A stretch of 64,000 nucleotides of DNA, taken from IMG/VR virus record IMGVR_UViG_2563366911_000001. The stretch is one strand, 5' to 3'. The stretch is from a virus. Its lineage: Duplodnaviria > Heunggongvirae > Uroviricota > Caudoviricetes. This document shows positions 26,573 to 27,571 of this stretch, piece by piece; positions within the stretch are counted from its first letter, which is position 1, and each line of letters opens with the position of its first letter. The position numbers were made by a program, and so were the translations under genes. The notes below the pieces were generated by a model. It was not told the DNA's origin and did not search any database. It saw only the letters and a list, made by a program, of their open reading frames with translations.

Positions 26573-27571
26573 TTATCCGTTACCGCGCGACGGTTTCTGC
26601 GTGATAAACGTCTCAAGCATCTTTTCCGCAATTGCCGACCAGGTGTGACACTGGACCTTTTCAGCATTTTTCACGCGATCAACGCGAGCAATAACCTCAT
26701 CCCAATCAATCCGCGACTTGATAACCATATGGTTCACCAAAGCCAGGCGATCTGGCGGAAGGCAATCGGGAGGCGTTAATACCAACGCCCCACACATTGC
26801 CGCCTCAAGAACAGTTAATCCAAGGCTTTCGGGATGCGTAACGATAAAAACGTCACTCTTACGCAATTCAGCTGCAAATTCGGTTGCTGGCACCGGCGTC
26901 CGCCTGTATGGAGTTACCGAAATATTCCCCGGATCAATGGTAACCAATCCGTCATCAGTCAACGTTCTGGCCTCATACGGAACGGTCAGACGCTGAAGGT
27001 TCATAAGGATACTTAAGGAGTGATCAAAACCACTAACATCAAATGCAGCGTGGTCTACAAAAATACGCAGAACATCGTCCGTTTTGGTTTCCAGATGGAA
27101 CAGCTCCTGATTCGCTGCCCATCCAACATGTTTGTTAAAGCGATTATGACGTTCTAACCGACCGGGATTATCCAGGTACCGCCAGGTATCATCGCGGACA
27201 GTAAAAGTAATATCGACTGGTGCCGAATCCAGCATAGAACCGTCATATACCTGGGCTACCCATCCAGAGAATCGGCGACACAGTTGCATGCCTATTTCCC
27301 TGGGTACCGTAGTAAAATACCTCAATCCTGGTGCCAAAATGGCCTTCGCAGAACATGCTGTCGCAGCAGTCAACACAGCTTCAACATAATCCTCGGGGCT
27401 TTCGACGCCAGGGGAATATGGACGATGGTATTGCAATGTTACCCCTGCCTCACTAAAGGCGCAGGCCAGGTTATAAGACCACATTTCCGTATATGTTTTC
27501 ACATCACTGATGGCTGCAAATTTTCGCCCAATGATCAGGATGTTCATCGGCTTTTCCTCATTCCATTGCAT
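26573..27571 (-). CDS. GT-B-fold glycosyltransferase (group 1/4-like), 332 aa
   Basis: C-terminal SDVFIVTHPESLGLTVLEAAMCGALVL motif; start overlaps ban stop. Confidence 0.65.
   Translation of the reverse strand: MQWNEEKPMNILIIGRKFAAISDVKTYTEMWSYNLACAFSEAGVTLQYHRPYSPGVESPEDYVEAVLTAATACSAKAILAPGLRYFTTVPREIGMQLCRRFSGWVAQVYDGSMLDSAPVDITFTVRDDTWRYLDNPGRLERHNRFNKHVGWAANQELFHLETKTDDVLRIFVDHAAFDVSGFDHSLSILMNLQRLTVPYEARTLTDDGLVTIDPGNISVTPYRRTPVPATEFAAELRKSDVFIVTHPESLGLTVLEAAMCGALVLTPPDCLPPDRLALVNHMVIKSRIDWDEVIARVDRVKNAEKVQCHTWSAIAEKMLETFITQKPSRGNG

Follow-up and report, generated by a model that had tools for sequence, protein, structure and literature searches.

A GT4-like glycosyltransferase gene downstream of the ban helicase gene in a P1-type phage-plasmid, its candidate partner enzymes and a possible role in envelope glycan assembly

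The 64,000-nucleotide stretch of viral DNA analyzed here (IMG/VR virus record IMGVR_UViG_2563366911_000001, Caudoviricetes; hereafter the window) carries on its minus strand the gene dbn (26573-27571; 332 codons in the long form, ATG start), whose predicted product is a GT-B, GT4-like glycosyltransferase (GT) and whose possible place in a set of glycan-building enzymes is the subject of this report. The 999 nt of dbn were 99.6-99.8% identical to phage P1 and its close relatives and 96-98% identical to P7, RCS47 and SJ46, matching positions 72659-73657 of the P1 record at 99.6% nucleotide identity. Synteny was as in P1, with dbn directly 3' of ban and convergent with baseplate gene 5 (25894-26526). 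The source element is a P1-type phage-plasmid. The gene, its place after ban and the guess at a glycosyltransferase have been public annotation since 2004; the P1 reference record lists dbn ("downstream of ban"; protein YP_006544) as "function unknown, possible glycosyltransferase", P7 names it glt ("encodes putative glycosyltransferase") and RCS47 has "putative glycosyltransferase, Dbn". These are the same gene at the same position (96-99.8% nucleotide identity) and differ in nothing substantial. The protein matched PHROG 2518 (phrog_2518), labeled "unknown function", over its full length (residues 1-332 of 332; E = 1e-239), and its NCBI protein cluster of 2431 member sequences is named "glycosyltransferase family 4 protein".

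Directly upstream of dbn, on the same transcript, lies ban (27571..28941, minus strand; 456 amino acids [aa]), which encodes a DnaB-type replicative helicase according to both the P1 annotation and Pfam (DnaB_C, E = 6e-108; DnaB N-terminal domain, E = 2e-35). The ban stop codon (TAA, 27573-27571) and the dbn start codon (ATG, 27571-27569) share one base in a TAATG overlap (27569..27573, minus strand; coding strand GATTATTAATGCAATGG; junction in codons, GAT TAT TAA TGC AAT GG), so that the proposed start of the gene within the helicase stop codon can be read directly from the sequence. TAATG was nearly invariant across the P1-like loci searched, with TGATG in four. The overlapping start is nonetheless in doubt because a second in-frame ATG lies 8 codons in (M9, MNILIIG...; 27545..27547, minus strand) and is preceded by its own Shine-Dalgarno-like GAGGAA, because all non-P1 Dbn homologues begin at the M9 position, and because codon 2 of the long form is a stop in one natural P1-like variant. 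The true start may be M9, 24 nt past the ban stop and without overlap; whichever start is used, ban and dbn are predicted to be co-transcribed and are tightly packed. Some 20 nt past the dbn stop, between dbn and the convergent gene 5, an 11-bp hairpin flanked by an A-tract and, on its other side, a T-tract (26526..26552; minus strand, -17.6 kcal/mol and z = -5.4; plus strand, -18.6 kcal/mol) probably serves as an intrinsic terminator in both directions and closes the ban-dbn transcript. It escaped a simple terminator scan because the T-run is absorbed into the stem. A simple promoter scan found one site within ban, below shuffle counts, and gave no support for the GenBank-predicted promoters P1dbn and P2dbn.

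By sequence alone, the evidence for a glycosyltransferase was thin. The Pfam model Glycos_transf_1 matched residues 229-315, in the C-terminal half, with E = 1.5e-5 and 25.0 bits against a gathering cut-off of 26.4, a borderline score that misses the threshold, and single-sequence searches against NCBIfam and PDB sequences returned nothing significant. A Dbn-family profile run against PDB sequences hit mostly KtrA, a Rossmann-like match that was disregarded as spurious. The structure predicted by AlphaFold2 from a 16-sequence alignment (predicted local distance difference test score 89.5, predicted template modeling score 0.86) had two alpha/beta domains, both confident, and Foldseek against PDB ranked GT4 enzymes first (GlgM, PimB' and BshA; E about 1e-7 to 3e-8). 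On this model the fold is settled as GT-B, with two Rossmann-like domains and an interdomain cleft. The motif E248-SLGLTVL-E256 (26804..26830, minus strand) corresponds to EX7E, the hallmark of nucleotide-sugar binding and catalysis in retaining GT4-type enzymes, and hhalign aligned E248 and E256 with E281 and E289 of Escherichia coli WaaG. Conservation was computed on 124 full-length relatives (roughly 25-58% identity): E248 was kept in 99% and E256 in 100%, and the pair D173-H174 (27050..27055, minus strand) in 100% and 99%, respectively. Positions conserved in at least 85% were D110, G150-W-A-A153, D173-H174, D183, R224, F242, T245-H246-x-E248-S249-x-G251, E256, A258, G261, W290 and W311. 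The claim of a group-1/GT4-like, GT-B product carrying an EX7E motif was therefore borne out by the fold model and by conservation of the motif among these relatives.

Dbn differs in several respects from the retaining GT-B enzymes of CAZy families GT4 (WaaG, PimA, PimB', BshA, MshA) and GT5 (glycogen synthase), to which its identity was 10-15%. It has no glycine-rich N-terminal loop, it has N-domain motifs of its own (D110 and GWAA at 150-153), and in the region of the GT4 phosphate-clamp Gly-Arg the clamp is replaced by the family-specific, invariant D173-H174 pair. The WaaG clamp residues R208 and K209 aligned with the non-conserved V179 and S180 of Dbn in a low-confidence hhalign alignment, and only H174 and R224 are candidates to stand in for the GT4 Arg/Lys diphosphate clamp. 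Since the usual clamp is not present, the donor chemistry of Dbn could be unusual. Among 1.84 billion cluster representatives, an exhaustive profile search recovered no more than 378 Dbn relatives at E ≤ 0.001; on that search, the subfamily is small, divergent and distinct, without merging into mainstream GT4. It may extend to giant viruses, as the closest viral structural match of the model by far was a Tupanvirus soda lake glycosyltransferase in BFVD (A0A6N1NPH0, 315 aa; template modeling [TM] score 0.77-0.81, E = 3e-17, 18% identity). Ten longer or fused members of the family (413-630 aa) were scanned with Pfam, and just two had extra domains, a methyltransferase and a weak hydrolase match; the fusions say nothing on the acceptor. 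Dbn had no predicted membrane segment, and calculations of domain charge and isoelectric point were uninformative on membrane binding.

Selection on dbn was estimated from the P1-like loci, which gave 162 full-length copies (contigs entered twice under different locus identifiers among them). These comprised 66 distinct nucleotide alleles, of which 64 were intact, and the median ratio of nonsynonymous to synonymous substitution rates (dN/dS) relative to the window copy was 0.11, indicating strong purifying selection and showing that the frame is not open by chance. An inactive relic, in which a degenerate GT-B fold is kept by hitch-hiking or for a structural role, would suit the sub-threshold Pfam score, the failure to find the canonical phosphate-binding Arg/Lys pair and the dispensability of dbn in the laboratory. 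We consider such a relic very improbable: the low dN/dS, the intact alleles and the retained EX7E motif make a degenerate, inactive fold unlikely, about 20 further positions are held in at least 85% of the 124 relatives (with D173 and E256 in all of them), and the structure model is confident for both domains. The original prediction, made from the letters alone, had allowed for a degenerate fold without catalytic residues; what was found is an intact EX7E motif under purifying selection, although the Arg/Lys clamp was not found.

Relatives outside the P1 group placed the gene in a different company. Scans of IMG/VR and of metagenomes for diverse Dbn relatives returned nearly only P1-like contigs, and the diverse members came from the exhaustive profile search and look-ups of the encoding contigs. 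Sixteen non-P1 loci with a Dbn homologue were examined (labeled L003, L004 and so on; L171/L212, L222/L226 and L170/L225 are close kin), and the neighborhood counts given here are small and without phylogenetic correction. A helicase gene stood beside the Dbn homologue in none of the 16. Instead, homologues of three further P1 genes, pmgO, pmgP and pmgQ, recurred within a few kilobases: a PmgO/P-like gene in 12 of the 16 loci and a PmgQ-like gene in 10. On lambda-like contigs the Dbn homologue lies in a tight operon just ahead of the terminase genes. The order is PmgO-like, PmgP-like, a 189-aa protein, Dbn-like, PmgQ-like in L003 (overlaps of 4-7 nt); PmgP-like, Dbn-like, PmgQ-like, PmgO-like in L004; and PmgP-like, Dbn-like, PmgQ-like, then terminase genes in L169. 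Across the three, cassette genes overlap by 4 nt to ~50 nt; the PmgQ homologue always follows the Dbn homologue directly and overlaps it, and the PmgP homologue lies just upstream, adjacent and overlapping in L004 and L169 and with one gene between in L003. Partner genes also occur near the Dbn homologue in a Serratia prophage remnant (L222/L226; within a few kilobases), in two soil contigs (L218 and L219) and in a 95-kb Citrobacter element (L225) and its relative L170. In a large phage contig of 120 kb (L223, 8001-12545), Dbn-like, PmgQ-like, two FkbM-type methyltransferase and PmgO/P-like genes stand in a row, which suggests a methylated glycan. The same contig encodes several proteins with ADP-ribosyltransferase domains.

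Within this sample, only P1-like elements join dbn to ban. The helicase link appears incidental because the non-P1 homologues are coupled to PmgP- and PmgQ-like genes or sit in capsule loci. Membership of a "replication operon", which the original prediction took as a clue to function, is therefore misleading.

In P1 itself the corresponding genes are apart from dbn. In the window, pmgO (19976..20638) and pmgP (19452..20078), both on the minus strand and overlapping by about 100 nt, encode paralogous MptE-like proteins (phrog_4603, E = 4e-74, and phrog_2111, E = 1.6e-132, respectively); PmgO is a Cst-II/WaaZ-like putative transferase of cytidine monophosphate (CMP)-activated ulosonic acids. 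The PmgO/P-family profile matched the Campylobacter sialyltransferases Cst-II and Cst-I (E = 8e-6 to 2e-4), as well as a lipooligosaccharide sialyltransferase, the flagellin glycosyltransferase Maf, and MptE. An hhalign comparison with E. coli WaaZ, the transferase of the third 3-deoxy-D-manno-octulosonic acid (Kdo III) in the lipopolysaccharide (LPS) core, gave 95% probability and E = 2e-8, and motifs common to the family are GPS, N37, D53 and LxGxD. The gene ppp, for a lambda-type Ser/Thr phosphatase, separates pmgP from pmgQ (18080..18781, minus strand; phrog_1962, E = 1.6e-127). PmgQ is a GT8-like glycosyltransferase of GT-A type and carries a DxD motif (D79-L-D81); D79-x-D81 is invariant in its family, together with a GDQ motif, and the family profile matched Skp1 alpha-galactosyltransferase (E = 1e-6), glycogenin (E = 1e-4), E. 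coli WaaJ (E = 1.5e-4) and, weakly, LgtC. The P1 set therefore comprises one GT4-like enzyme (Dbn), one GT8-like enzyme (PmgQ) and two WaaZ/sialyltransferase-like enzymes (PmgO and PmgP). All four genes are on the same strand, with dbn parted from pmgO-pmgQ by an inverted tail/baseplate block (26-25-7-24-6-5) and pmgL-N, an arrangement that looks like a rearranged form of a contiguous cassette. On the strength of the contiguous forms elsewhere, PmgO, PmgP and PmgQ are candidate pathway partners of Dbn. A genome-wide CRISPR interference (CRISPRi) screen and single-gene knockouts classed dbn, pmgO, pmgP, ppp and pmgQ as nonessential (PMC10695390), and a P1 knockout study reported no plaque defect and no change in antirestriction in 24 of 29 knockouts (PMC9024508). 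That all five genes are dispensable fits a shared accessory pathway. In the literature searched, we found neither functional studies of dbn, pmgO, pmgP or pmgQ nor any prior link of dbn with the three pmg genes as one module with relatives in bacterial capsule loci.

Bacterial homologues of Dbn (roughly 26-52% identity) were found directly after a PmgO/P-like gene in capsule loci of the ATP-binding cassette (ABC)-transporter, or kps, type, and the pairing of Dbn-like with PmgO/P-like genes was seen in at least four independent bacterial loci. The typical order is KpsM, KpsT, KpsE, KpsD, a large GT1, a GT4-like protein of ~320 aa, an MptE/WaaZ-like protein and the Dbn-like protein, as in Colwellia (L005), on chromosome 3 of Brucella pseudogrignonensis (L090, where no KpsD was seen) and in L227. 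In L171/L212 the order GT1, ~320-aa protein, MptE-like, Dbn-like was kept on short contigs that end before any transporter genes. The ~320-aa neighbors were considered as Dbn paralogues and rejected; they did not match the Dbn-family hidden Markov model, and Pfam identified them as weak GT4-like proteins. Directly after the Dbn-like gene of L227 lies a CTP_transf_3 gene (9053-9817; CMP-Kdo/CMP-sialate synthetase family), and the capsule-type locus of L090 includes a GlmS-like amidotransferase gene (9957-11801); the CMP-ulosonate synthetase-family gene and the amidotransferase give a hint of the sugars used. The Colwellia Dbn-like gene (L005, 7384-8702; also L006 and L007) was called in pieces of 110 aa, 63 aa and 233 aa, and is either a frameshifted pseudogene or a gene-calling problem. 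P1 departs from the capsule loci in having no transporter, export genes or large GT1 polymerase-like protein, and the capsule loci in turn have no GT8-like enzyme, which P1 does (PmgQ).

These neighborhoods bear on what Dbn glycosylates, for which the original prediction had proposed DNA, virion or host surface. On the DNA glycosylation hypothesis, Dbn would attach a sugar to some modified base of P1 DNA, perhaps a product of Dmt, as protection against restriction in the manner of the T4 glucosyltransferases. The co-transcription of dbn with a replication gene and the position of the Dmt methyltransferase gene ~3.4 kb upstream in P1 would agree with it. The closest structural relatives of Dbn are not DNA glycosyltransferases, however; T4 alpha-glucosyltransferase ranked 21 among the structural matches, below about 20 ordinary GT4/GT5 enzymes, and of the two T4 DNA glucosyltransferases (alpha and beta) the alpha enzyme is no nearer to Dbn than generic GT4 enzymes are. 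The tie to ban holds only in P1-like elements, and elsewhere the homologues keep Kdo/sialyl-transferase-like and GT8-like partners or sit in capsule loci. The P1 annotation from 66,659 to 94,800 lists neither a hydroxymethylase nor an enzyme of TET/JBP type, and no enzyme that would make a sugar-accepting base was found there or among the neighbors of Dbn homologues, not every open reading frame (ORF) of the window having been screened. For the rest of the P1 genome we know of no base-hydroxymethylating enzyme, and P1 DNA is routinely cut and cloned with no sign of hypermodification, which also counts against glycosylated DNA. Finally, P1 knockouts showed no antirestriction change (PMC9024508). 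We regard DNA glycosylation as the least probable of all the explanations considered, close to negligible, and the presence of Dmt, which had been proposed as a methyltransferase-glycosyltransferase connection, gives no evidence of a link to dbn.

The structural matches also raise the question of another soluble target, in that Dbn might glycosylate a small molecule, RNA or host protein, in counter-defence or host metabolism, while the neighboring glycosyltransferases serve separate functions. GT4-fold enzymes acting on small molecules (BshA, MshA, tetrahydrobiopterin glucosyltransferase and SenB) were among the best structural matches, the D173-H174 pair is unusual where the usual Arg/Lys clamp was not found, and solitary copies of the gene exist. 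Repeated, often overlapping operons that unite Dbn homologues with two other types of glycosyltransferase point instead to oligosaccharide or polysaccharide assembly, as do the capsule loci, and PADLOC models matched none of Dbn, PmgO, PmgP and PmgQ. A soluble target of this kind is, in our estimate, quite improbable.

We propose that Dbn is a cytoplasmic, retaining, GT4-type GT-B enzyme that would move a sugar from a nucleotide-sugar donor to a growing oligosaccharide and would work with PmgQ, PmgO and PmgP, not with the helicase. That Dbn is an active glycosyltransferase in a multi-enzyme glycan module appears likely from the conserved motif, the selection on the gene and the recurrent gene order; enzymatic activity, retaining mechanism and cooperation with PmgO, PmgP and PmgQ are inferred. 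Together, the four enzymes would assemble a short glycan in infected cells or lysogens, the acceptor being lipid-linked and part of the envelope. The glycan would probably contain Kdo because CMP-Kdo is the only CMP-ulosonic acid in strain K-12. For this acceptor, the LPS core is our best guess; it also serves P1 as its receptor. Enterobacterial LPS core is built by the CAZy classes GT4 (WaaG/WaaB) and GT8 (WaaO/WaaJ) and the WaaZ family, the same three classes as P1 Dbn, PmgQ and PmgO/PmgP, though the sequence similarity of Dbn to WaaG is marginal (hhalign E = 0.004) and the likeness is a working analogy, not membership. An altered cell surface might exclude superinfecting phage or keep progeny from adsorbing to debris. 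As a whole, a four-enzyme set building an envelope glycan is the best explanation we have, with the chances about evenly balanced, and the specific claim that Dbn acts on an envelope glycolipid falls a little short of even. Among the three targets proposed in advance, host-surface modification thus fits best, virion glycosylation is possible, and DNA glycosylation fares worst given the capsule-locus relatives and the Kdo/sialyl-transferase-like and GT8-like partners.

A functional analogue may be found in the gtrABC and oac seroconversion genes, by which phages alter host surface glycans. Gtr systems consist of a GT2 bactoprenol glucosyltransferase (GtrB), a flippase (GtrA) and a periplasmic or membrane GT-C enzyme, whereas Dbn is a predicted soluble, cytoplasmic-type GT-B, and no neighbors of GtrA, GtrB or GT-C type were found in the P1 annotation read (66,659-94,800). 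A similar analogy attaches to the podophage-like contig L224, in which a solitary Dbn-like gene (8001-9059) lies on the opposite strand inside the structural module and adjoins the gene for a 643-aa beta-helix, tailspike-like protein, a position in which genes for surface-polysaccharide conversion are often found.

Several observations weigh against an envelope glycan built by the four enzymes, in addition to the sub-threshold Pfam score and the replaced clamp. The four genes are not contiguous in P1, where dbn lies ~6 kb from pmgO-pmgQ, and the P1 annotation places dbn in the C1-repressed early ban operon and the pmg genes behind a late promoter and C1 operator. Some members of the Dbn family stand alone, as in L224. 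The acceptor is a matter of pure inference, and we are not aware of an altered LPS in lysogens of P1 or in cells infected by it. Some enzymes related to the partner families (glycogenin, Skp1 GalT and Maf) glycosylate proteins, and these, together with the Tupanvirus match, fit virion glycosylation equally well.

Virion glycosylation would have Dbn, PmgO, PmgP and PmgQ decorate one or more head, tail or fiber proteins of P1, changing stability, immune recognition or adsorption. Glycan decoration of particles occurs in mycobacteriophages and giant viruses, and the best viral structural neighbor of Dbn is the Tupanvirus enzyme. The late promoter of the pmg genes, which are named "putative morphogenetic", the position of the lambda-like cassette in the late region directly before terminase and head genes, and the L224 homologue beside the beta-helix tailspike would all suit a structural target, as would the protein-glycosylating relatives of the partners (glycogenin and Skp1 GalT for GT8, Maf for the MptE-like enzymes). 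Against it, no protein target is obvious in the polysaccharide export loci that hold the bacterial homologues, dbn of P1 belongs to an early C1-controlled operon, the knockouts had no plaque defect, and in its main text the P1 virion proteome paper says nothing of glycosylation or of any of the four proteins. A site next to the tailspike gene is moreover the classic place of O-antigen conversion genes, so that the position of the L224 homologue counts against virion glycosylation as well. We consider decoration of the virion unlikely, and prefer the envelope glycan.

P1 is among the most used phages in bacterial genetics, and P1-like phage-plasmids commonly carry resistance genes in Enterobacteriaceae. 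Some 3 kb of P1 (dbn, pmgO, pmgP and pmgQ) apparently encode a sugar-transfer pathway under clear purifying selection, and the link to a module, drawn from about sixteen loci, makes the function of Dbn directly testable. If the LPS core is remodeled, this would explain how a phage with an LPS receptor protects its lysogen or progeny, and would matter for the host range and serotyping of strains that carry P1-like plasmids. If virions are decorated, it would be, to our knowledge, the first such case in a classical coliphage. A broader conjecture, put forward tentatively and in our view more doubtful than not, is that a portable set of four glycosyltransferases, derived from ABC-transporter capsule loci, is shared by P1 and a variety of unrelated temperate phages of enterobacteria, and that it either rebuilds the host LPS core cytoplasmically during infection or lysogeny, with host CMP-Kdo and uridine diphosphate (UDP)-sugars, or puts a Kdo-containing glycan on the virion. 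Were the rebuilding of the LPS core to hold true, it would constitute a new kind of phage receptor masking, distinct from periplasmic Gtr/Oac conversion.

Elsewhere in the window, the region adjacent to ban resembles RCS47 and not P1. In place of tciA-tciB-tciC of P1, a variable accessory slot just upstream of ban (29324-30368, minus strand) encodes a 275-aa SPFH/band-7-type lipoprotein and a 78-aa small membrane protein, at 99.7% identity to phage RCS47. The ban operon region also holds three tRNA genes on the minus strand, with anticodons CAT (29221-29296; tRNA-Ile2 in the P1 annotation), TGT (tRNA-Thr, 31296-31371) and GTT (tRNA-Asn, 31374-31449). The product of pap (15937-16443, minus strand), annotated as an "acid phosphatase" in P1, matched Pfam HAD_PNKP (E = 9e-12) and is labeled "polynucleotide kinase" in PHROG; the enzyme may process the ends of nucleic acids instead of being a general acid phosphatase.

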